NCBI GenBank assembly: GCA_050008495.1
Contig: JBEKMN010000087.1
Span: 1-23,911, forward strand
DNA from: Terriglobia bacterium
GTDB taxonomy: Bacteria > Acidobacteriota > Terriglobia > UBA7540
Direction: 5' to 3'
Length of the DNA: 23,911 bases
How positions within the stretch are numbered: the first letter of the stretch is position 1; each line of letters opens with the position of its first letter. The translations under genes and the position numbers were made by a program. The notes under the pieces were generated by a model. The model made no database searches. It worked only from the letters and a program-made list of their open reading frames with translations, and was not told where the DNA came from. This document shows positions 1,690 through 12,193 of the stretch, piece by piece.

Positions 1690-1729
1690 GCCATCTACCT
1701 CCGGACATTAGCATATTCTTCGACCTTAC

Positions 1730-1927
1730 TCACTGACAAGTGAATTCAAAACCCGATTCCTCGAGCACTCTTTCAGATCTGCGACACAGTGTGTCGCGTT
1801 CTTGAAATGGTGGGCCGGGATCGCTGTCTTGTATGGCCACCACATCACAATTGAGTGGCTCAACTATGGTTTTGATCACATTCAGGATGGCCGGTTCGTC
1901 ATCCACCACCAAAAGTTTCAAGGACAT
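1730..1927 (-). pseudogene. Truncated response-regulator receiver (N-terminal beta1-alpha1-beta2 only)
   Basis: The 65-aa ORF begins MSLKLLVVDDEPAILNVIKTIVEPLNCDVVAIQDS, a typical receiver start with the acidic DD pair. It then degenerates and stops. The phospho-acceptor Asp, the T/S and the K regions are all absent. Confidence 0.55.
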
Positions 1928-2007
1928 GGGTTATCTGGTCGTACCATCAGAATTGCTGTTCCGTCGTGCAAAACTACCCGCACCGGGACATTCATCTGCG
2001 TTGCTGC

Positions 2008-2358
2008 CTATTTTGGGCCTGGTAATGCATCCAACACATCGCGCACCTTGCGCGCCAGGCTATCTGGTGTAAAAGGTTTCTGCATGAAAGCCTTTCCGGC
2101 TTCCAGCCCGCCAACGCAGATTGCAGCGGCGCCCGTATATCCTGACATGAAGAGCACTTTCGCTTCGGGGTGCGCCATCTCAAGGCATTGCGCCAGAGTC
2201 CTCCCGCTTATTCCGGGCATCACCAAATCGGTCAGTAAAAGGTGGATGGTAATCTTCCCGTCGGCGCTGATGGTGACCAGCGGGTCGACGGAGGCCTCAA
2301 TCAGGCTGCGTGCATACTCGGAGGCTTGCTTCTGGGCTGTGACATCGCGGGCGGTGGC
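2008..2358 (-). pseudogene. Remnant of a PAS-containing hybrid sensor kinase: a PAS N-cap fused directly to the C-terminal half of a receiver domain, with no usable start
   Basis: I extended the 72-aa track ORF (which uses a TTG start) upstream in frame to the stop at 2359-2361. This gives ATARDVTAQKQASEYARSLIEASVDPLVTISADGKIT|IHLLLTDLVMPGISGRTL...MQKPFTPDSLARKVRDVL. The first part matches an inter-PAS linker plus PAS N-cap (compare ASAYNRSLIEASLDPLVMIAPGGKIT in the 621-aa kinase). The second part is receiver beta3 to alpha5. PAS core, HisKA, HATPase and receiver beta1-beta2 are missing. Confidence 0.6.
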
Positions 2359-2786
2359 TCATTGACCACCAGCCAGAAGAGCCCCAGTTGCTTCACTGCC
2401 CGGCGGAAGGAGTCAAAGTCCACGGGCTTTTGAACGTAGGCGTTGACCCCCAGCTTGTAGCTCTCCACCAGGTCGTCTTCTTCGCGCGAGGAAGTGAGGA
2501 CTACAACCGGAATCGTTTTGGTGCGCGGGTCGGCCTTTAGCGTGCGCAGGACTTCCAGGCCATCCACTTTCGGCAGTTTCAAGTCCAGAAGGACCAGTTG
2601 GGGCAGGTGATCGAGGCTGCGGCCTGCGAACTCGCCCTGGCAGAGAAGATAATCCAGCGCTTCTTCCCCGTCACGAGCCACCTGAAGGTTGTTGGCAAGG
2701 TTTTCCTCACGTAAAGCGTGGATGGTCAGCTTGGCATCCTTGGGGTCGTCTTCAACAAGAAGAATCTGTACATCCTTTGGCGTCAT
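2301..2786 (-). CDS. Single-domain CheY-like response regulator (receiver only)
   Basis: ILLVEDDPKDAKL, LVLLDLKLPKVDG (phospho-acceptor Asp), VVVLTSS and YVQKPVDF are all present, followed by a FWLVVNEPPP tail. The start overlaps the upstream kinase stop (ATGA at 2783-2786). The last ~15 codons read into the pseudogene remnant in another frame. Confidence 0.85.
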   Translation of the reverse strand: MTPKDVQILLVEDDPKDAKLTIHALREENLANNLQVARDGEEALDYLLCQGEFAGRSLDHLPQLVLLDLKLPKVDGLEVLRTLKADPRTKTIPVVVLTSSREEDDLVESYKLGVNAYVQKPVDFDSFRRAVKQLGLFWLVVNEPPPAMSQPRSKPPSMHAA

Positions 2787-3850
2787 TGCACACCTCCCGA
2801 TTCTGTTCGTTTTTCCCGTTCGGGACTGTCCGACGATCCCAGGGTGAAATAGAAAGTCGCGCCCTTGTCGAGTTCAGCTTCCGCCCAAACGCGCCCTCCA
2901 TGTTTATGAATTATGCGTTGGACGGTTGCCAAGCCCACTCCGGTACCTTCAAAGTCTTCCGCCCGGTGGAGGCGCTGAAACATCCGAAAGAGTTTTTGGG
3001 CATGCTTCATGCTGAAACCCACGCCGTTATCGCGCACGAAGATGGTGGCGTGTTCGTCCTGACCGGCCGCACCCACCTCAATGATGGCCGGTCTACGCGA
3101 GCGGGTAAATTTAACCGCGTTGGCGAGCAGGTTGAAGAAGACCTGTTTCATCAACCCCGGATCGCATTCGACAAAGGGTAGCGTATCAACCCTCCACTCG
3201 ATCAAGCGATCGGGGTTTGCCCGATTCAAATCTGACCTGACGGCGTCGACGAGAGAGTTCAGTCCGGTTACCTGTACGCTCAGTTGTGATCGTCCTACCC
3301 GCCCCAGATTGAGCATGTCATCAATGAGCGTACGCATCTGGAGGACCGATTCAAGAATGGTCGCGACATATTCTTGTGCTCCGGGGGACATCTCGGCCCG
3401 GTGCCGTTCGACGAGCAGCTTTGCGAACCCGTCAATTTGACGTAGCGGCGCACGCAGGTCATGGGAGACGGAGTATGTAAAAGCTTCCAATTCCCCGTTG
3501 GCGGCTTCCAATTCCGCCGTCCGTTTCTTCACCCGCCACTCCAGCTCTTCGTTGAGCTTGCGGATCTCCTCCGTCCGCCGCGTCACGCGCCCTTCCAATT
3601 CCAAAGTCGACTGAAGCAATTCCGAATTGGTCTTCTGCAGCTCGTTGTGCGCCTCCTGCAATTCCGCCGTGCGCGCATCGACGCGCTGTTCGAGTTCCAG
3701 AGCCAAAGCCACCAACCCCCTATTTGTCTCCTCCAACTCTTTCTGGAGGACCCGGATCGTGTCATAGGGGTCCGCAGGCAATTCGAGCGTCTTGATGTCG
3801 TACATAGGTTCTCTACCTAAGCCGGAGGGAGAGTCCCGGAAGTTCGCCAC
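2783..3850 (-). CDS. Sensor-less cytoplasmic histidine kinase (long coiled coil + HisKA + HATPase_c)
   Basis: H-box FTYSVSHDLRAPLRQIDGF; N-box FFNLLANAVKF; G-boxes VRDNGVGF and GTGVGLATVQRI. There is no TM segment or sensor domain. The N-terminus carries three tandem copies of the ELExRVxxRTxEL signalling-helix motif. GTG start at 3850, 6 nt after the upstream stop. Confidence 0.9.
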   Translation of the reverse strand: MANFRDSPSGLGREPMYDIKTLELPADPYDTIRVLQKELEETNRGLVALALELEQRVDARTAELQEAHNELQKTNSELLQSTLELEGRVTRRTEEIRKLNEELEWRVKKRTAELEAANGELEAFTYSVSHDLRAPLRQIDGFAKLLVERHRAEMSPGAQEYVATILESVLQMRTLIDDMLNLGRVGRSQLSVQVTGLNSLVDAVRSDLNRANPDRLIEWRVDTLPFVECDPGLMKQVFFNLLANAVKFTRSRRPAIIEVGAAGQDEHATIFVRDNGVGFSMKHAQKLFRMFQRLHRAEDFEGTGVGLATVQRIIHKHGGRVWAEAELDKGATFYFTLGSSDSPEREKRTESGGVQ

Positions 3851-3856
3851 CCGGTT

Positions 3857-4924
3857 TTACCTACCCTTCGCCATACGTGCGCGCGGCTGGGCCTCCCTTA
3901 CCACGACCACCGTCGCGTCGTCGGTGTCTCTCGCATGACGGTTTAACAGATGTTGGGCGGCGCGGGTGGCGGAGGCGTCCCGAAGTTCAGGATAATCTGC
4001 CCATTCCCAACGGGCCGACACCCCGTCCGAGTGCAACACCATCACTTGACTTGGTTCCCAATGGTGCTCGGTGATGACCGGATGGGGAGCGTTCAACCCG
4101 ATCAAGCCGCGCCGCACCAAAAAGTTCATTTTTTGTGGACACGCAAACACGCGAGCTTCGATGTTGCCGACGCTGGCAAAAATAAGGCTTTCACTCCCCC
4201 AATCGAATCGCGCTAGCGCCATCACCACTCCTTGTGTTCCACGACAGGCTCGATCCACGCCGCAGAAGAGAGTGTCCAAAGGCCGGTCGTAATGTGCCTC
4301 GACAAAGAGTTGAGCCTCTCGTGCCGCCTGAAATGCCAATTGCCCGTGTCCCACTCCGTCAATCACTCCCACCAGCGCGTTTTCACCCCACCTTTCCAGA
4401 ACGAAAGTATCGCCATTTTTCTCTTGCCCCGGATGGGGTCGAGTGGCCGCGCCCATGTCCAGGGGACAAGGCTTGAGGGTAGTGTTTTTAAGCAAATTCC
4501 AACGCTGGCAGACGATGCGCGTCCCCTTTTCTCCCACGCCCCTCGAAGAGATAATCAAGTCGTCCATGAGCCGGTTGACCGCTCCCAAGCCGCACCCCAG
4601 GCTGCCGGCAGTGGAATAGCCATCCGCGATGGCTTGCTCCACATCGCTGATCCCTGGGCCCCTGTCGACGGACTCGATTTGAATTCCTGCCCGCTCGCTC
4701 TCGCGAGTTGGGATGAGCGTCAGCCTGCCTCGACCAGCATGTTTCAGGAGGTTGGAAGCCAGTTCGGTCACCACAACCGCCACTTCTTCGCACTCCCTCA
4801 CGCCGAAACCTAGCGCCCGGGCCATCGTCCTGCCTGCCTGCTGAGCGGTACCCACGTGGCCGGCCTGAGAGACTTCAATGGATTGCTCCGCAATGTCATT
4901 GCGGCCAGTCATTTCCGCAGCCAT
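3857..4924 (-). CDS. Fusion protein: RsbT/RsbW-like HATPase (serine kinase fold) N-terminal domain plus RsbX-type PP2C phosphatase C-terminal domain
   Basis: The N-terminal half (VVVTELASNLLKHAG...DRGPGISDVEQAIADGYSTAGSLGCGLGAVNRLMDDL) aligns with the adjacent RsbT. The C-terminal half (GDTFVLERWGENALVGVIDGVGHG...VMVLHSDGV...DDATVVVV) carries PP2C/SpoIIE-type motifs. It overlaps the rsbT stop by 16 nt. Confidence 0.8.
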   Translation of the reverse strand: MAAEMTGRNDIAEQSIEVSQAGHVGTAQQAGRTMARALGFGVRECEEVAVVVTELASNLLKHAGRGRLTLIPTRESERAGIQIESVDRGPGISDVEQAIADGYSTAGSLGCGLGAVNRLMDDLIISSRGVGEKGTRIVCQRWNLLKNTTLKPCPLDMGAATRPHPGQEKNGDTFVLERWGENALVGVIDGVGHGQLAFQAAREAQLFVEAHYDRPLDTLFCGVDRACRGTQGVVMALARFDWGSESLIFASVGNIEARVFACPQKMNFLVRRGLIGLNAPHPVITEHHWEPSQVMVLHSDGVSARWEWADYPELRDASATRAAQHLLNRHARDTDDATVVVVREAQPRARMAKGR

Positions 4925-5319
4925 TTCCGCACCCTCACCGTAGTGCCCTTTCCCACTTCTGTGTGAATTTCCATTTCATCCATCAACCGTTTGACGCCGG
5001 GCAGGCCCAGACCCAGTCCGCGACTTGTGCTGTAGCCGGGCGTCATGGCCTGCTCGACATCCGGGATGCCGGCTCCGTGGTCTTCGAACGTTAGCTCCAG
5101 GCCCACTTCCCCGCTCCGGTCGAGGATGGACCACCACATAACACCCGCACCTACGTAAAGAAATACATTGCGAGCCAACTCGGATGCGGCGGTAATGACG
5201 CGCGTGACATCGGTGACTCCAAAGCATAACTGCGTAGCCAGATCCCGTACGACCCGTCGCGCGGCAACGATGTCGTTCTCGGACTTGATGGGAATATTCC
5301 CCCGTGCTAAGTCGCTCAT
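4909..5319 (-). CDS. rsbT: RsbT-like stressosome serine kinase / switch protein
   Basis: 136 aa, collinear with B. subtilis RsbT: DIVAARR...ELARNVFLY.GAG...EDHGAGIPDVEQAM.PGYSTS.GLGLGLPGVKRLMDE...GKGTTVRVRKW. The start overlaps the rsbS stop. Confidence 0.9.
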   Translation of the reverse strand: MSDLARGNIPIKSENDIVAARRVVRDLATQLCFGVTDVTRVITAASELARNVFLYVGAGVMWWSILDRSGEVGLELTFEDHGAGIPDVEQAMTPGYSTSRGLGLGLPGVKRLMDEMEIHTEVGKGTTVRVRKWLRK

Positions 5320-5699
5320 CGTATTCGCCTCCGAGGGTGCAGGTGGGTCAGCAGATCCAGGGCGCGGTCTACCGTAAGCGCCGTGAAAGTGCCAACCATT
5401 GTCAAGCCCAACTGCGTGGCGGTGATGGCGACACTCGGGCGCATTCCGGCGATCACTGTTTGTCCCCCCATCATGGTCACCATGCGGCTGGTTTCGGTGA
5501 TCGTGCGCGCGAAAAAGGAATCGAGCGTCTCGACAGCGGAGATATCCAGCACCAACCCTTTCGGCCGGTATTCTTCCATGGCCCCCAAGACCTCCTCCTG
5601 GAGGGTCGTCACCGTTACGTCGTCGGGGTCGGCGGGCATCGTCACCAGCAGCGTATTGCGCACCTTAACCAGTGAGATATTTTGGTTCGTCATTGCCAT
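5316..5699 (-). CDS. rsbS: RsbS-like single STAS-domain stressosome scaffold protein
   Basis: 127 aa. LLVTMPADPDD...GLVLDISAVETLDSFFAR...MMGGQTVIAGMRPSVAITATQLGL is collinear with B. subtilis RsbS, including the conserved phosphorylatable Ser in the DS motif. Confidence 0.9.
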   Translation of the reverse strand: MAMTNQNISLVKVRNTLLVTMPADPDDVTVTTLQEEVLGAMEEYRPKGLVLDISAVETLDSFFARTITETSRMVTMMGGQTVIAGMRPSVAITATQLGLTMVGTFTALTVDRALDLLTHLHPRRRIR

Positions 5700-5726
5700 A
5701 ACTCCTTCCGGAATAGAGGGAATGTC

Positions 5727-6590
5727 TCACAAGGAGTGCGCTCCCTTGGCCTGATCTTCCTGGGTGATAATCTTGAGGTTGAGGATGTCCAGCGCCACGC
5801 GCAGCCCGGCCGCCAGCGATGAGCGAGTCACAACATCCGCCAGGTTGATCCCCAAATGCGCGAGGGTCTGGGCAATCGCCGGCCGCACGCCCGTCAGTAT
5901 CGCCTGCGCCCCCAACAACCGCACGGAGGTGATGGTCTCGATCAGGTGTTGCGCGGTTCGCGTATCAATGGCCGGGACGCCCGTCACATCCAGGAGGGCG
6001 ACCGCGGAGTTGGTCTGCACAATCTTATCCAGCAAGCGTTCCATGAACTGCTGCGCCCGCTGGGTATCCAGCGTGCCGATGAACGGCGCGACAACCACCC
6101 CTTCCCACACTTGCAGTACGGGAGTGGAAACATCCAGGATTTCCTTGGCCCGCTCGGCCAGTGCCTCGCGCATCCTCTTTTGCTCGGTAATGTCTCGGGC
6201 CGTAGTCGAGGCTCCGATAATTTGGCCGGAGGCATCGCGGATGGGCGAGACATTCAGAGAAAGGTCAATGACCTCCCCATCTTTCGTAACCCGGGTAGTC
6301 TCAAAGTGACTTACACGTTCTCCCCGTTTCACTTTTTCGAGGATCGCGGGTACCTCGTCAGGTTTGTTGGGGGGCACCAGAACGCTGACGGGCCTGCCCA
6401 CCATCTCCGCCGCCGAGTATCCATAAATCCTTTCGGCGCCGCGGTTCCAGCTCAGGATCGTGCCATCCAGGGTTTTACCGTAGATGGCATCGTCGGAGCA
6501 CTCTACAATCGACGCCAGATAGGCCTGCGAGGCAACTCCCTCGATGTCTTCAAGGGCCGCCGTACCACTCAATTTGCTTCTATTTGCCAT
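5727..6590 (-). CDS. rsbR: RsbR-like stressosome sensor: N-terminal PAS domain plus C-terminal STAS domain
   Basis: PAS: SIVECSDDAIYGKTLDGTILSWNRGAERIYGY...ARDITEQKR. STAS: VLQVWEGVVVAPFIGTLDTQRAQQF...LLDVTGVPAIDTRTAQHL...ILTGVRPAIAQTLAHLG. I place the start at the ATG at 6590-6588, which is preceded by GAGGAGGAAAGGAAA. The track ORF extends to 6758, but those 56 extra codons are Arg/Gly-rich junk. Confidence 0.85.
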   Translation of the reverse strand: MANRSKLSGTAALEDIEGVASQAYLASIVECSDDAIYGKTLDGTILSWNRGAERIYGYSAAEMVGRPVSVLVPPNKPDEVPAILEKVKRGERVSHFETTRVTKDGEVIDLSLNVSPIRDASGQIIGASTTARDITEQKRMREALAERAKEILDVSTPVLQVWEGVVVAPFIGTLDTQRAQQFMERLLDKIVQTNSAVALLDVTGVPAIDTRTAQHLIETITSVRLLGAQAILTGVRPAIAQTLAHLGINLADVVTRSSLAAGLRVALDILNLKIITQEDQAKGAHSL

Positions 6591-6754: not shown

Positions 6755-8620
6755 TCAACCCTCCGCAGCACTTCCGATTTCAGCCTCCAGGCCTTCTTGG
6801 CCGCTGCCATTGAGCGTGAAGTAAAACGTGGCTCCCTGGTTCAGGGCGGCCTCCGCCCAAACCCGCCCTCCGTGTTTGTGAATAATGCGCTGGACCGTGG
6901 CCAGGCCCACGCCCGTTCCTTCAAAATCCTCGCTCCGGTGCAGGCGCTGAAACACCCCAAAGAGTTTGGTGGCATATTTCATGTTGAAGCCTACGCCGTT
7001 GTCCCGCACGAAAATGACGGCACAGCCCTCTTGTTGAGTTGTTCCCACCTCAATCACCGCCGGTTTCCGCGGGCGAGTAAACTTGACGGCATTGGAGAGC
7101 AAATTCGCAAAGACCTGTTTAATCAGAGCCGGATCGCACTCGACGAAGGGCAGGGTTTCGACCTTCCACTCGATCGTGCGGTCGGGGTTCTCGCGCATCA
7201 AATCCGCCCTGGCCTCATCCACGAGGGAGTTCAGCCCAGTCGCTTGCATGCTTATTTGCTTTCGCCCCAAACGCGCCAGGTTGAGCAGATCATCAATCAG
7301 CATTCCCATATGGAGGACTGCATCGCGAATCGTCGCGATGTCTTCTAAGGCGTCAGGGGAAAGCTCGGCGCCGTGCCGATCCACGAGGAGCTTGGAAAAC
7401 CCGTCGACGTGCCGCAGGGGGGCCCGCAGGTCGTGGGAGACCGAATAAGTAAAGGCTTCCAGCTCTTTGTTGCTGGCTTCGAGTTCTGCCGTGCGCTCGC
7501 GCACCCGCTGCTCGAGTTGCTCATTCAGACGCCGGACCTCCTGCTCCGCGCGTTTGCGTTCGGTGATATCGCGAGCCGCGGCGAAGATGCCGATGACCAC
7601 GCCCGCCTCGTCCCGGTAAACCGAAGCGTTATAGAGGACGGGGGTGAGGTGTCCATCCTGGTGCCGGATTCCCAACTCGTAATCCTGGACAAAGCCCTCG
7701 CGAAAGGTTTGTTGATATCCAACCCGGGCCTTTGCGGGGTCGGAGAAGTAATCGCAGAAGTCCGTGCCGATCAACTTCTGTCGGACGCGGCCGGTGGCCT
7801 TTTCCATGCCGGAATTGGCGTCGGTGATTTTGCCACCGGGTGCGATCATCACCAGCGGATCCAAACTGGCCTCGATCAAGCTGCGGTTATAGGCGCTCGC
7901 CCCCTTCAACCGTTCCTCGGCCCTCCGGCGCGCGGCGCTGCCCCGGAGGGCAATCCAACTTCCCGCGGAGAAGACCATAACAGCCAAGAGGCACCCGAGG
8001 ATAACCACGGCGTCCGCGGTGCGGGCGTGGGCCCGGCTCGCGGCCTCGCGGACCCGCAATAAACTGCTCTCGTTCGACTGCATGGAGTCAACAAGCTCGC
8101 GTATTTCGTTCATTAACCTGAGCCCCTCCGCCTTGTTCAGCTCTTGGCTGGCGGCCGCGAATCCTTGGTTGCGGCGCAGCGAAATGAGGTTCTGCATCAC
8201 AGCGATTTTGCGGTTGGTCAGGGACGAGAGTTTGTCCACCTGATCACGCTCGAACGGATCGTCCACGATCAGGCCGGGGAGTGCCTGGAGATGCTGGGGG
8301 ACGCGTGAGATTCCCGCTTGGTGTTGTTCCAGGAAAGTCTCGTTACCCGTGGCCACAAACCCCCTTGTGCCGGCCTCAGCTTGCTGTATCGCAGAATAGA
8401 TTTGTTCAAGTTCGGTGCGGACGACGATGGTGTGCGCTACCCAGCGGTCCGTCTCAATCAGCGCCTGAGTGGCTCGGTACTGTATCGCACCCACCGCCAT
8501 CAGAGTCGCCAGGGCCAGCCCGAAACCGGTTACCATCTTTTGTTCCAGCGAGAACGGCCGGAAGAATTTCGTCCAGTTGCTCATTCTTGTTTCATCCTGA
8601 CAGGCCATTTTCCCAACCAA
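6755..8620 (-). CDS. Membrane sensor histidine kinase: TM, CHASE3-like periplasmic domain, TM, PAS, HisKA, HATPase_c
   Basis: TM1 is GFGLALATLMAVGAI. CHASE3-like helices (WVAHTIVVRTELEQIYSAIQQAEAGTRGFVATG...) follow, then TM2 VVILGCLLAVMVFSAGSWIAL. The PAS domain is SLIEASLDPLVMIAPGGKITDAN...ARDITERKRAE and the H-box is FTYSVSHDLRAPLRHVDGF. The HATPase motifs are intact. The true start may be the ATG at 8584 (MSNWTKFF..). Confidence 0.9.
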   Translation of the reverse strand: MVGKMACQDETRMSNWTKFFRPFSLEQKMVTGFGLALATLMAVGAIQYRATQALIETDRWVAHTIVVRTELEQIYSAIQQAEAGTRGFVATGNETFLEQHQAGISRVPQHLQALPGLIVDDPFERDQVDKLSSLTNRKIAVMQNLISLRRNQGFAAASQELNKAEGLRLMNEIRELVDSMQSNESSLLRVREAASRAHARTADAVVILGCLLAVMVFSAGSWIALRGSAARRRAEERLKGASAYNRSLIEASLDPLVMIAPGGKITDANSGMEKATGRVRQKLIGTDFCDYFSDPAKARVGYQQTFREGFVQDYELGIRHQDGHLTPVLYNASVYRDEAGVVIGIFAAARDITERKRAEQEVRRLNEQLEQRVRERTAELEASNKELEAFTYSVSHDLRAPLRHVDGFSKLLVDRHGAELSPDALEDIATIRDAVLHMGMLIDDLLNLARLGRKQISMQATGLNSLVDEARADLMRENPDRTIEWKVETLPFVECDPALIKQVFANLLSNAVKFTRPRKPAVIEVGTTQQEGCAVIFVRDNGVGFNMKYATKLFGVFQRLHRSEDFEGTGVGLATVQRIIHKHGGRVWAEAALNQGATFYFTLNGSGQEGLEAEIGSAAEG

Positions 8621-9652: not shown

Positions 9653-12193
9653 ATGAGTATTCTGCCAGACGCCAAAATCAAAACTGACGGTAATTCCGCG
9701 ACGGATGAAAAGTCGCCTAACGGATTAAGCATCTCTTCGCCTCCCTTACGCGCGCTCATCCTGGAAGATGACCCGCGCGATGCAGTGGTGACGGCGAGCG
9801 TACTCGAGGGCGGGGGGTATAAAGTGCTATTCGAGGTCACGGACGACCTGGAAGTCTTCCGGGAGCGTCTGGAAAAAGCAGAGTACGACATCATTCTCGC
9901 CGATTTCAGCCTTCGCGACTGGTCTGCGCTCGACGCGCTGGACGTCTTAAAGCACTCAAACAAGGATGTTCCGCTCATTGTCGTAACAGGCGCTCTGGGC
10001 GACGAAGCTGCGGCAGAATGCATCAAGCAGGGCGCGGCGGACTTCGTTCTCAAGGACCGCCTCGCACGATTGCCCACCGCAGTTAAACGGGCGCTGGAAG
10101 AAAGACGCCTTCGCCACGAGAACAAGCGAGCTTTGGAAGCGCAACTCCGGCTGGCCACAATTGTGGAGTCGTCGGGCGAAGGGATTGTTGGCACGACCTT
10201 GGAAGGCTTCATTACGAGCTGGAACAAAGGCGCCGAGACACTTTTCGGCTATTGCGCCGGAGAGGTTTTGGGGCACCCTATTTCCGCCCTCGAACCGGCC
10301 GAGCGAGCCGAGGAGGCTAAACAGGTCTTCGCAAGTCTTCGGCGCGGCGGGTCCATTGAGCAATTGGAGACGGCACGAGTTCGGAAAGATGGGAGCCTGG
10401 TGGATGTTTCGCTGAGTGTGTTCCCGCTCCTCGACTCCCGTGGAAAGCTGACGGGGCTGGCCACGATTGCGCGTGACATCACTGAGCGCAAGAGGGCCGA
10501 AGAGAAAGCCCAGAGCGCGGCCCGTCAGATCAAGTCGCTTCTGGAGGCCGCCGGCGAAGGAATCTATGGTGTGGACGGGGAGGGCATTCTCACCTTTGTG
10601 AATCCCACCGCCAGCAGAATTCTTGGTTATGCGGCTGGGGAACTCGTAGGCGGCGGCGCTCACGCCATCTTTCACCACAGCCATCCTGACGGAACACCCT
10701 ACCCGGCCGACGATTGCCCCCTGGTGTATTCGGTTCTGGGCACGGGCCTCCCGCTGCGTTGCGAGGATTGGTATTGGCGAAATGATGGTAGCGGCTTTCC
10801 GGTGCAAGTATCCGCCACGCCCATTAAAGAATCCGGGATTGTCGTCGGAGCGGTGGTCACTTTCAGCGATATTACTGAACGAAAGCGCGCCGAGGAGGCG
10901 CTTCGCGACCAAGCCAGCCGGGATCCACTGACGGATCTTTGGAACCATAGGTCCATTCTTGCGATCCTGGCTAAGGAAGTAGCGCGTGCCTCCCGCACCC
11001 ACACTCCCGTTGCCGTCGCCATGATCGACGTGGATCGATTCAAGACAATTAACGACACCTATGGCCACCCGGCGGGCGACGCCGTATTGCGGGAAGCTTC
11101 GCACCGCCTGCGGGCGACGATGAGAACTTATGATTCCCTCGGACGATACGGTGGAGACGAGTTCATGGCGGTGTTCCCCGGATGCGATTCTGCTACCGCC
11201 GTTGGCTTTGCCGAATCCTTTCGCACTCGCATCGACCACCAGGCCATAGAAACTCCAGAAGGTATAATTCCCATGACCCTCAGTGTAGGGGTGGCGGAGC
11301 TCGGGGACCTCGGTGAAGTAAAATCTGAGACGCTCGTCCGCACCGCCGATGCCGCCCTATATCGCGCCAAGATCGCGGGACGGAACCGCGTAGCGCTGGC
11401 TTCAGCCGAAGACATTGAGAAAGGGGTATCGAAGCGTTTCCTCGAAGGCGGTCTGCCGGGCCTTGAGACGCCCCTTACCGAACTGTCGGCCTCGCATCCT
11501 CAATGGGATCAACTCTCCGCCGCTTCTCTCGAAACGAGCGCACCGCATCCGGCGGCCGAACACGCGGTAGCCCTTAGCAATCTCGAGGCCACTTGCTTGC
11601 AAGCCATGGAAGCGCTGGTGACGGCCCTCGATGCGCGAGACCACGAAACGTTTGGCCATTCCCACCGCGTGCGCGCCTATGCGCGCCACCTGGCGCAGAA
11701 GGCGGGATACCCGGCTGAGCTTTTGCCGTCGCTCGAACGGGGCGCATTTTTGCACGACATCGGCAAGATTGCAGTCTCGGACGTTATCCTGAGGAAGCCC
11801 GGTCCGCTCACGTCCGAGGAATGGGTGGAGATGCGCAAGCACCCTGAGGCAGGGTACGATATTCTGAGGAGCTTTCCCTTTTTGCGTCCTGTCTGCGATA
11901 TTGTTCGCCATCACCACGAGCGCTTCGATGGGACAGGTTACCCCGGCGGACTCAAAGGTGCACAAATCCCACGTGGGGCACGCGTATTCGCCTTGGCAGA
12001 CACTCTTGACGCCATGACTTCCGACCGGCCGTATAGAAAGGCACTAGAGTTTGAAGCGGCCCGGAATGAAATTCTGCAAATGGGCGCTTCACAATTTGAT
12101 CCTCAGCTTGTCGAAGTGTTCCGCAAGATTCCCCTTGCCACTTGGATGCGGCTCCGAGCAGAGACTGAGAAAAACTCGGCCTTGGTGACCTGA
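9653..12193 (+). CDS. Response-regulator-type c-di-GMP turnover protein: REC-PAS-PAS-GGDEF-HD-GYP
   Basis: REC: LILEDDPRD...IILADFSLRDWS...LIVVTG...DFVLKD. There are two PAS domains, each ending in DITERKRAEE. GGDEF: DVDRFKTINDTYGHPAGD...RTYDSLGRYGGDEFMAVF, with RxxD five residues before GGDEF. HD-GYP: HSHRV...FLHDIGK...RKHPEAG...HHHERFDGTGYPGGL...ALADTLDAMTSDRPYR. Confidence 0.92.
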   Translation: MSILPDAKIKTDGNSATDEKSPNGLSISSPPLRALILEDDPRDAVVTASVLEGGGYKVLFEVTDDLEVFRERLEKAEYDIILADFSLRDWSALDALDVLKHSNKDVPLIVVTGALGDEAAAECIKQGAADFVLKDRLARLPTAVKRALEERRLRHENKRALEAQLRLATIVESSGEGIVGTTLEGFITSWNKGAETLFGYCAGEVLGHPISALEPAERAEEAKQVFASLRRGGSIEQLETARVRKDGSLVDVSLSVFPLLDSRGKLTGLATIARDITERKRAEEKAQSAARQIKSLLEAAGEGIYGVDGEGILTFVNPTASRILGYAAGELVGGGAHAIFHHSHPDGTPYPADDCPLVYSVLGTGLPLRCEDWYWRNDGSGFPVQVSATPIKESGIVVGAVVTFSDITERKRAEEALRDQASRDPLTDLWNHRSILAILAKEVARASRTHTPVAVAMIDVDRFKTINDTYGHPAGDAVLREASHRLRATMRTYDSLGRYGGDEFMAVFPGCDSATAVGFAESFRTRIDHQAIETPEGIIPMTLSVGVAELGDLGEVKSETLVRTADAALYRAKIAGRNRVALASAEDIEKGVSKRFLEGGLPGLETPLTELSASHPQWDQLSAASLETSAPHPAAEHAVALSNLEATCLQAMEALVTALDARDHETFGHSHRVRAYARHLAQKAGYPAELLPSLERGAFLHDIGKIAVSDVILRKPGPLTSEEWVEMRKHPEAGYDILRSFPFLRPVCDIVRHHHERFDGTGYPGGLKGAQIPRGARVFALADTLDAMTSDRPYRKALEFEAARNEILQMGASQFDPQLVEVFRKIPLATWMRLRAETEKNSALVT

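Follow-up and report, generated by a model that had tools for sequence, protein, structure and literature searches.

How a stressosome passes on its signal when RsbU and sigma-B are missing is an acknowledged open question, and it is the question posed by a packed run of six minus-strand genes in a soil-dwelling Terriglobia bacterium (Acidobacteriota). The genes lie on a contig of 23,911 nucleotides (nt), here called the window; the window is one complete 23.9-kb contig and there is therefore no sequence directly beyond it. The source genome has a size of 6.0 Mb and is 96% complete. The genes encode RsbR, RsbS and RsbT of the stressosome, a fused phosphatase (termed X), a histidine kinase (HK) and a response regulator (RR). 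Judged by the proteins that it encodes, the locus is a signalling operon of the stressosome type, with the two-component pair as its output. The stressosome probably addresses the kinase through a conserved helix at the very start of the kinase, the ETNxG helix, to which RsbT would most likely dock. The genes of the operon and the helix are as follows, in the order of transcription and with positions in the window.

5727-6590, minus strand: RsbR, 287 amino acids, with Pfam PAS and STAS domains
5316-5699, minus strand: RsbS, 127 amino acids, a single Pfam STAS domain
4909-5319, minus strand: RsbT, 136 amino acids, a GHKL serine kinase (Pfam HATPase_c_2)
3857-4924, minus strand: X, a fusion protein of 355 amino acids (Pfam HATPase_c_2 and SpoIIE/PP2C)
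2783-3850, minus strand: the output HK, a frame of 355 amino acids (Pfam HisKA and HATPase_c) without a sensor domain
3653-3805, minus strand: the ETNxG helix motif of the HK (MYDIKTLELPADPYDTIRVLQKELEETNRGLVALALELEQRVDARTAELQE), candidate receiver of the stressosome signal; two further S-helix units follow, to ~nt 3490
2301-2786, minus strand: the RR, 161 amino acids, with Pfam Response_reg only

The operon and its two-component output

RsbR and RsbS carry, by sequence, the hallmarks of a stressosome core, and RsbT has the features of an intact GHKL serine kinase. RsbR combines a PAS sensor (residues ~25-134, nt 6189-6518) with a C-terminal STAS domain (residues ~157-249, nt 5844-6122), and its best matches in the PDB, made by the STAS half, are the RsbR proteins of Listeria (1e-30) and V. 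vulnificus (6e-27). In B. subtilis the phospho-acceptors of RsbR are T171 and T205, and RsbS has the conserved serine S59. Their counterparts here are Thr176 and Thr210 of RsbR, which align with the Listeria phosphorylation sites T175 and T209, and Ser61 of RsbS, which is conserved within an LDSF motif. The N-box (ELARN), G1 box (DHGAGI) and G2 box (GLGLGL) of RsbT are all intact. A preliminary description of the window, made from its letters and open reading frames (ORFs), had taken the proteins of 127 and 136 residues for RsbS and RsbT, and the search scores bear this out. RsbS matches Moorella MtS (2vy9), B. subtilis RsbS (6jhk) and the Listeria protein (6qcm), all with E values of ~5e-19 compared with ~1e-3 for SpoIIAA, and Vibrio RsbS is also among the solved RsbS proteins that it matches. 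RsbT is 50% identical to B. subtilis RsbT with an E value of 9e-44 in a lead-grade comparison, as against ~1e-11 for SpoIIAB and 0.005 for the RsbW-like protein of its own genome; no solved RsbT chain was among its PDB matches. A generic SpoIIAA/SpoIIAB partner switch is rejected, as both proteins score far better as RsbS and RsbT.

The phosphatase half of X is closest, by sequence and by predicted fold, to Moorella MtX and B. subtilis RsbX. This RsbX-type PP2C domain (residues ~155-343, nt 3896-4462) matches MtX (3zt9) with an E value of 6e-16 and RsbX (3w40) with one of 4.5e-5, and the predicted fold, from a model with a predicted local distance difference test score (pLDDT) of 85.8, gives template modelling (TM) scores of 0.93 and 0.80 with the same two structures. 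That a kinase fold is joined to the PP2C domain had been recognized in the preliminary description, and the kinase fold can now be specified as an RsbT paralogue: the head of X (residues ~9-142, nt ~4499-4900) is 36% identical to RsbT of the window over the whole length of the latter (E value 5e-22), and its modelled fold has a TM score of 0.74 with SpoIIAB. The family of fused X proteins shows no variation in the ATP-binding motifs of the head or in the metal-binding aspartates of the PP2C domain (D172, D189, D300 and D335/D336), all of which are intact in X.

The HK is, to judge by its motifs, a catalytically complete HisKA kinase without a sensor domain. The HisKA domain spans nt 3296-3487 and the HATPase_c domain nt 2840-3163, and all the expected boxes are present, namely SHDL (with the phospho-acceptor His130), NLLANA, DNGVGF and GTGVGL. 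The protein probably starts at the ATG at nt 3805 and has 340 residues, because homologues and the gene calls of relatives begin there; nearly all homologues start at the methionine that is codon 16 of the 355-residue frame, as do the products called on 97%-identical contigs. The six genes lie where the preliminary description had placed them and their spacings were reproduced from the coordinates: a 27-nt gap separates rsbR from rsbS, rsbS and rsbT overlap by 4 nt, rsbT and the gene for X overlap by 16 nt, and the genes for the HK and the RR overlap by 4 nt. The 6-nt gap between X and the HK holds for the 355-residue frame and is probably 51 nt given the likely later start of the HK. A Pfam search of the six proteins returned precisely the domains that had been expected. 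The ATG of rsbR, at nt 6590, is preceded by a GGAGGA ribosome-binding site; scans for promoters and terminators inside the cluster gave nothing informative.

The RR consists of a REC domain only, with no output domain, and has Asp13/14, Asp68, Thr98 and Lys120 in place. It matches 5ic5 in the PDB with an E value of 4e-46, and also 5brj, RcpA and Rcp1, and is thus of the Rcp1 or phytochrome-associated type. The tail of the protein beyond about residue 147 is unlike that of close relatives, with a breakpoint at nt 2345. At this position, ~codon 147 of the RR, collinearity with two 97.35%-identical contigs (loci L087 and L088) ends. In those relatives an RR of 152 amino acids is followed by a gene for a 515-residue REC-PAS-HisKA-HATPase protein. 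The window has in nt 1690-2345 (minus strand) a different RR tail and then relics of two-component genes, among them an ORF at nt 2008-2226 in which a PAS N-cap peptide is joined to a REC domain reduced to its C-terminal two-thirds, with a truncated REC start after it. The break at nt 2345 reflects a genuine deletion or rearrangement, if it is not a mis-join in the metagenome-assembled genome.

Nothing in or near the operon points to sigma-B. A domain search found no RsbU, RsbV, RsbW or sigma factor on the 23.9-kb contig, in agreement with the preliminary description. The RsbU_N domain (PF08673) has no match in the 96%-complete genome at E<=1, and the best genome-wide match to the SigBFG model reaches 129.7 bits compared with a cut-off of 234, so that no sigma factor exceeds it. 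No set of sigma factor, RsbV and RsbW is linked to the operon. One RsbW/RsbV-like pair of the genome, an RsbW-like protein of 161 amino acids and an RsbV-like protein of 129, is encoded elsewhere (contig C118, nt 10986-11790) without an adjacent sigma factor gene. Genes for a sigma-54 activator and a kinase lie near that pair on the other strand. The genome also holds eight other SpoIIE-type PP2C phosphatases.

Fused X proteins are widespread. The family has 3105 matches in a collection of 5.8 billion proteins, where some are named by NCBI as "ATP-binding SpoIIE family protein phosphatase", and a scan of one genome per species finds a relative in at least 507 genomes, from bacteria as well as from archaea. 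Eighty loci were examined in detail. The bacterial ones come from Acidobacteriota, Verrucomicrobiota, Planctomycetota, Methylococcales, Cyanobacteria, Chloroflexota, Firmicutes, Nitrospinota and Bacteroidales, and the archaeal ones from Methanotrichaceae, haloarchaea and Asgard archaea. All loci that include the upstream flank have one RsbT, one RsbS and one or more RsbR ahead of X, and the gene after X usually begins 4 nt ahead of the X stop codon, in a start/stop overlap. The proteins encoded downstream of X (79 in total) are ~80% histidine kinases: 58 have HisKA and HATPase_c domains and 5 are kinases of other types, with a further 10 being GGDEF-EAL proteins. REC domains are carried by 21 and PAS domains by 38, and a cruder count finds 19 sensor-less kinases of <=400 amino acids like the HK of the window.

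The gene order, in which R-S-T-X is directly followed by two-component genes as in the minimal stressosome of the Vibrio type, is not peculiar to the window but is kept in its relatives. The claim of the preliminary description that the stressosome is wired to an HK and RR is well supported by this conservation, since the gene-neighbourhood survey shows the kinase link to be kept across phyla; the observation of the operon is thus confirmed and its interpretation supported. That description had also held that RsbRST modules with two-component outputs are already catalogued by comparative genomics and have been studied in Vibrio, which is the case (PMC9237108, PMC10014275, PMC4976288). The arrangement belongs to a very large catalogued class, and the locus is therefore not rare. 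The class is catalogued yet biochemically unstudied, and what is added here is the phosphatase with its fused RsbT-like and RsbX-like halves and, at the N-terminus of the output protein, the conserved helix by which that protein is marked.

The helix at the start of the output proteins

Alignment of the first 110 residues of the proteins encoded downstream of X reveals that nearly all of them share a motif right after the initiator methionine, with the consensus I..LQ.EL.ETN.G..AL.LELE.RV.ERT.EL. The most conserved positions are, in the numbering of the 355-residue HK frame, L35, E38, L39, T42, N43, L49, E52 and L53. In 76 of the 78 evaluable loci a 51-residue model of the motif matches the downstream protein at its start, regardless of the output domain, although this count is partly circular in that the model was built from the same loci. 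Outside the starts of downstream proteins, in ~1 Mb of flanking sequence, the model matches in two loci only, both times in the next gene.

Since the locus count is partly circular, two independent checks were made. Among the six-frame ORFs of the bacterium's own genome the model matches only the HK of the window (E value 2e-25, with the next best at 0.89), and it does not match the ordinary single S-helix of a paralogous CHASE3-PAS kinase encoded upstream of rsbR. Among 201 sampled Acidobacteriota genomes the motif occurs in five, each time 0-570 nt downstream of a fused X and nowhere else. A wider search of 1.84 billion representative proteins gave 603 clusters that match at E<=1e-3, and in about 135 of the best 150 clusters the motif begins within the first ~14 residues. 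Of the exceptions, those that were inspected can be put down to wrongly called starts or to a frameshift in the gene call. An apparent fusion of X to its output (P0194, with the motif at residues 343-392) was rejected as a frameshifted gene call.

The leader of the HK had been described as too short for a docking domain like the N-terminal domain of RsbU. This stands insofar as there is no RsbU_N match, but the first ~50 residues constitute a conserved candidate docking motif of another kind. Compared with Pfam at E<=10 the motif gives sub-threshold coiled-coil noise only, and a PDB profile search with the same limit (E<=10) matches no solved structure, those of the RsbU N-terminal domain included. 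The possibility that the helix is a divergent RsbU_N or another known domain is rejected, as neither search gives a match. A literature search with motif strings (ETNRG, TNRGV, ALYAELD and ETNxG) returned nothing relevant, which is not proof that the motif is undescribed.

In an AlphaFold2 model of the 340-residue HK (pLDDT 81.8) residues 13-135 are predicted to form a single unbroken helix that runs from the motif through the S-helix units to the histidine of the DHp domain. Three S-helix (ERT) units stand in tandem in this N-terminal helix (nt 3490-3805, minus strand), namely LELEQRVDARTAEL, LELEGRVTRRTEEI and EELEWRVKKRTAEL; the first and second are 32 residues apart. Orthologues differ greatly in the length of the stalk between motif and H-box, and in some of them the two are joined by a single S-helix. 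The S-helix, or signalling helix, with its ERT signature is said to have been defined by Anantharaman, Balaji and Aravind in 2006. The stretch that follows the motif in the HK belongs with this class, having the signature (RV.ERT.EL) in three units, one after another, up to the DHp domain. Unlike an ordinary S-helix, however, the ETNxG segment ahead of these units is specific to the outputs of fused-X modules.

Two further Acidobacteriota loci (L089, G199:C1; L090, G040:C83) connect the helix with the RsbT fold. In both, R-S-T-X with a fused X is followed by a hybrid kinase in which an 'ETNRGV.ALYAELD' helix comes immediately after a third RsbT-like domain, itself equipped with N, G1 and G2 boxes. 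This fusion of an RsbT-like head to the same kind of helix is a natural one and provides a link between the helix and the RsbT fold.

Candidate partners of the helix

The account that we rank as most likely, and hold with moderate confidence, is that of a stressosome operon with a two-component output in which the ETNxG helix is the docking site of RsbT. On the model of Bacillus, Listeria and Vibrio, the core of RsbR and RsbS would sequester RsbT, and a cue at the PAS domain of RsbR would cause RsbT to phosphorylate S61 of RsbS and T176 and T210 of RsbR and to leave the core. X would, again by analogy, dephosphorylate and thereby reset the core, with its RsbT-like head probably recruiting it to the RsbT binding sites. 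As the conservation of the ETNxG helix suggests, the freed RsbT would dock on this helix, which forms the tip of the coiled-coil stalk of the HK, and docking would alter the packing of the coiled coil and with it the autophosphorylation of the HK, in the way that RsbT orders the linker of RsbU. The HK would then phosphorylate Asp68 of the REC-only RR. The CHASE3-PAS kinase, whose transmitter is near-identical, probably feeds the same RR, in which case two inputs would converge on it, and the final target may be a neighbouring REC-PAS-GGDEF-HD-GYP protein or downstream REC-kinases.

Published work provides context for such a mechanism. RsbT activates RsbU by ordering its coiled-coil linker, and the same logic has been proposed for kinases (PMC12143880). 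In Vibrio, the deltaRSTX and deltaD1 mutants have phenotypes in common (PMC10014275). A broader proposal can be advanced tentatively, and here we lean slightly towards doubt: the ETNxG helix may be a portable address tag, such that any dimeric output enzyme that starts with it, be it a histidine kinase, PAS-kinase, hybrid kinase or GGDEF-EAL protein, plugs into a fused-X stressosome module, in archaea as in bacteria. An RsbT-fold domain would bind the helix, either in trans (RsbT or the head of X) or in cis (the fused third copy), and this would be a second solution to the coupling problem, unrelated in sequence to the N-terminal domain of RsbU.

Several observations weigh against docking by RsbT. 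Heinz et al. did not detect binding of RsbT to VvD1 in Vibrio (PMC9237108). Residue D92 of B. subtilis RsbT contacts the RsbU linker (PMC12143880), and an aspartate at this position is invariant in the head of X (79 of 81 sequences) and variable in the RsbT proteins of fused-X loci; with the aspartate kept in the head of X, the latter fits as a partner at least as well. Mutual information between the motif columns and RsbT, the head of X, RsbS or the PP2C domain, calculated over 71 loci, is in no case above controls. Three Acidobacteriota modules with a classical single-domain RsbX (L094-L096, in genomes G038, G152 and G014) have no ETNxG helix nearby, and the helix therefore tracks the fused X and not RsbT as such. 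The partial circularity of the motif count counts in the same direction, and is partly offset by the searches of the genome itself and of the phylum.

The helix could also have another role, that of a substrate: RsbT or the kinase head of X would phosphorylate Thr42, a residue at a core 'd' position of the motif, and the coiled coil would be broken or re-registered and the kinase switched with no stable complex being formed. Such a scheme accords with the proposal by Heinz et al. of transient RsbT-dependent phosphorylation of downstream kinases (PMC9237108), and ATP-binding motifs are intact in both candidate enzymes. Position 42 is indeed a threonine or serine in 73 of 75 sequences (65 Thr and 8 Ser), but the remaining two have alanine, and conservation is about as strong at Asn43 (69 of 75) and at the positions with hydrophobic or acidic residues, which suits a binding surface. 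Moreover, the known substrates of RsbT-type kinases are serines and threonines on STAS loops and not intrahelical residues. We consider phosphorylation of Thr42 unlikely.

A second alternative keeps the helix as a binding site and makes the head of X, rather than RsbT, its partner. The kinase would form a complex with X, and RsbT would act on the core only or compete with X. Co-occurrence of the helix with fused X, its absence from the three single-domain-X modules and the aspartate that the head of X retains at the D92 position of B. subtilis RsbT (PMC12143880) all favour such an arrangement, as does the overlap of the output start with the X stop codon in most loci. One genome (L093, G020:C104) even has RsbR and RsbS followed by a fusion of RsbT to X, with no separate RsbT, but the output in that genome lacks the motif. 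RsbT is also present in nearly all the loci concerned, the covariation does not favour the head of X, and it is not obvious what a reset phosphatase would act on if it were tethered to the output. On this evidence the head of X is an improbable partner, and RsbT docking remains the reading that we prefer.

The proposal that the HK and RR are mere neighbours, with the helix serving as a dimerization or signalling helix that receives its input from, for example, heterodimerization with the CHASE3-PAS paralogue while the stressosome acts on an unlinked target such as the PP2C phosphatases and the RsbW/RsbV-like pair, could invoke the 73% identity of the two kinase transmitters and the presence of that pair and of eight other SpoIIE-type phosphatases in the genome, but it is very improbable in that the linkage with start/stop overlap holds across phyla and archaea, the motif occurs only beside X, RsbU_N is found in none of the genome's proteins, and the single S-helix of the paralogue itself gives no match to the motif.

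Neighbouring genes, known systems and significance

Three genes lie on the upstream side of the operon.

6755-8620, minus strand: the upstream CHASE3-PAS-HisKA-HATPase kinase (Pfam), 621 amino acids
8934-9260, minus strand: a REC-like ORF, 108 amino acids, matching positions 1-84 of the 111-position Response_reg model
9653-12193, plus strand: a REC-PAS-PAS-GGDEF-HD-GYP protein, 846 amino acids, divergently transcribed

The CHASE3-PAS kinase gene is separated from rsbR by a 164-nt gap and has the same position in relatives (L001, L087 and L088), where it is part of the conserved locus. Its identity to the output HK extends over 250 amino acids of the DHp-CA transmitter, and the specificity positions of helix alpha-1 (His+7, +11 and +12) are identical in the two proteins, so both kinases probably phosphorylate the same receiver. 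The first PAS domain of the REC-PAS-PAS-GGDEF-HD-GYP protein is 43% identical to the PAS domain of RsbR (E value 7e-36). This likeness suggests a shared cue and a possible cyclic di-GMP (c-di-GMP) end point for the locus. The REC-like ORF encodes a short form of the domain; the same 108-residue product is called on near-identical contigs and the short form is therefore not peculiar to this assembly.

A Vibrio rsbRSTX locus with two-component proteins was reportedly described by Pane-Farre in 2005. In V. vulnificus and V. brasiliensis rsbRSTX lies, as here, directly before two-component genes (VvD1/VvD2), without sigma-B, RsbU, RsbV or RsbW and with an output that lacks RsbU_N (PMC9237108; PMC10014275; PMC4976288). 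The differences are in the parts. The sensor of Vibrio RsbR is a globin, whereas that of RsbR here is a PAS domain; for Vibrio RsbX a lone PP2C domain is described, whereas X here is fused to an RsbT paralogue; and VvD1 is a PAS-containing hybrid with c-di-GMP partners, whereas the output here is a sensor-less kinase with an ETNxG helix, paired with a REC-only RR. The stressosome of B. subtilis and Listeria monocytogenes shares with the operon the RsbS serine, the two RsbR threonines, a reset phosphatase of the RsbX type and the R-S-T order, and its RsbT is ~50% identical by the lead-grade comparison. These organisms have RsbU and the RsbV-RsbW-SigB set, whereas there is neither RsbU nor RsbU_N here, the operon has no such pair and no sigma factor, and a sigma factor of the SigB type is absent from the genome. 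In addition, X stands directly after RsbT and has an RsbT-like head, and the output is a histidine kinase.

The MtR-MtS-MtT-MtX-MtG module of Moorella thermoacetica (Quin et al. 2012) provides top matches to two proteins of the window, MtS (2vy9) being among the best for RsbS and MtX (3zt9, TM score 0.93) being the best for the PP2C domain of X, and its output is likewise not a sigma factor. The solved MtX chain has 193 residues and comprises the phosphatase domain only. MtG is a GGDEF cyclase reported to have an RsbU N-terminal domain (PMC12143880), whereas the output here is a helix-headed kinase. Kinases with RsbU_N are also found downstream of stressosome operons and resemble the HK in being dimeric kinases reached through a coiled-coil linker. 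They carry a recognizable RsbU_N four-helix bundle, however, while the HK of the window has none by Pfam or PDB profile search and has only the ETNxG helix.

According to Heinz et al. (2022), most proteins downstream of stressosomes are without RsbU_N (PMC9237108). For the subtype of locus described here, present in at least 507 species genomes, the helix offers a small and sharply defined candidate interface, namely the first ~50 residues of the output protein. Should the stressosome signal indeed be received by the helix, the outputs of uncharacterized stressosomes would be recognizable from sequence alone, and the model in which RsbT orders the coiled coil of RsbU would extend to histidine kinases.

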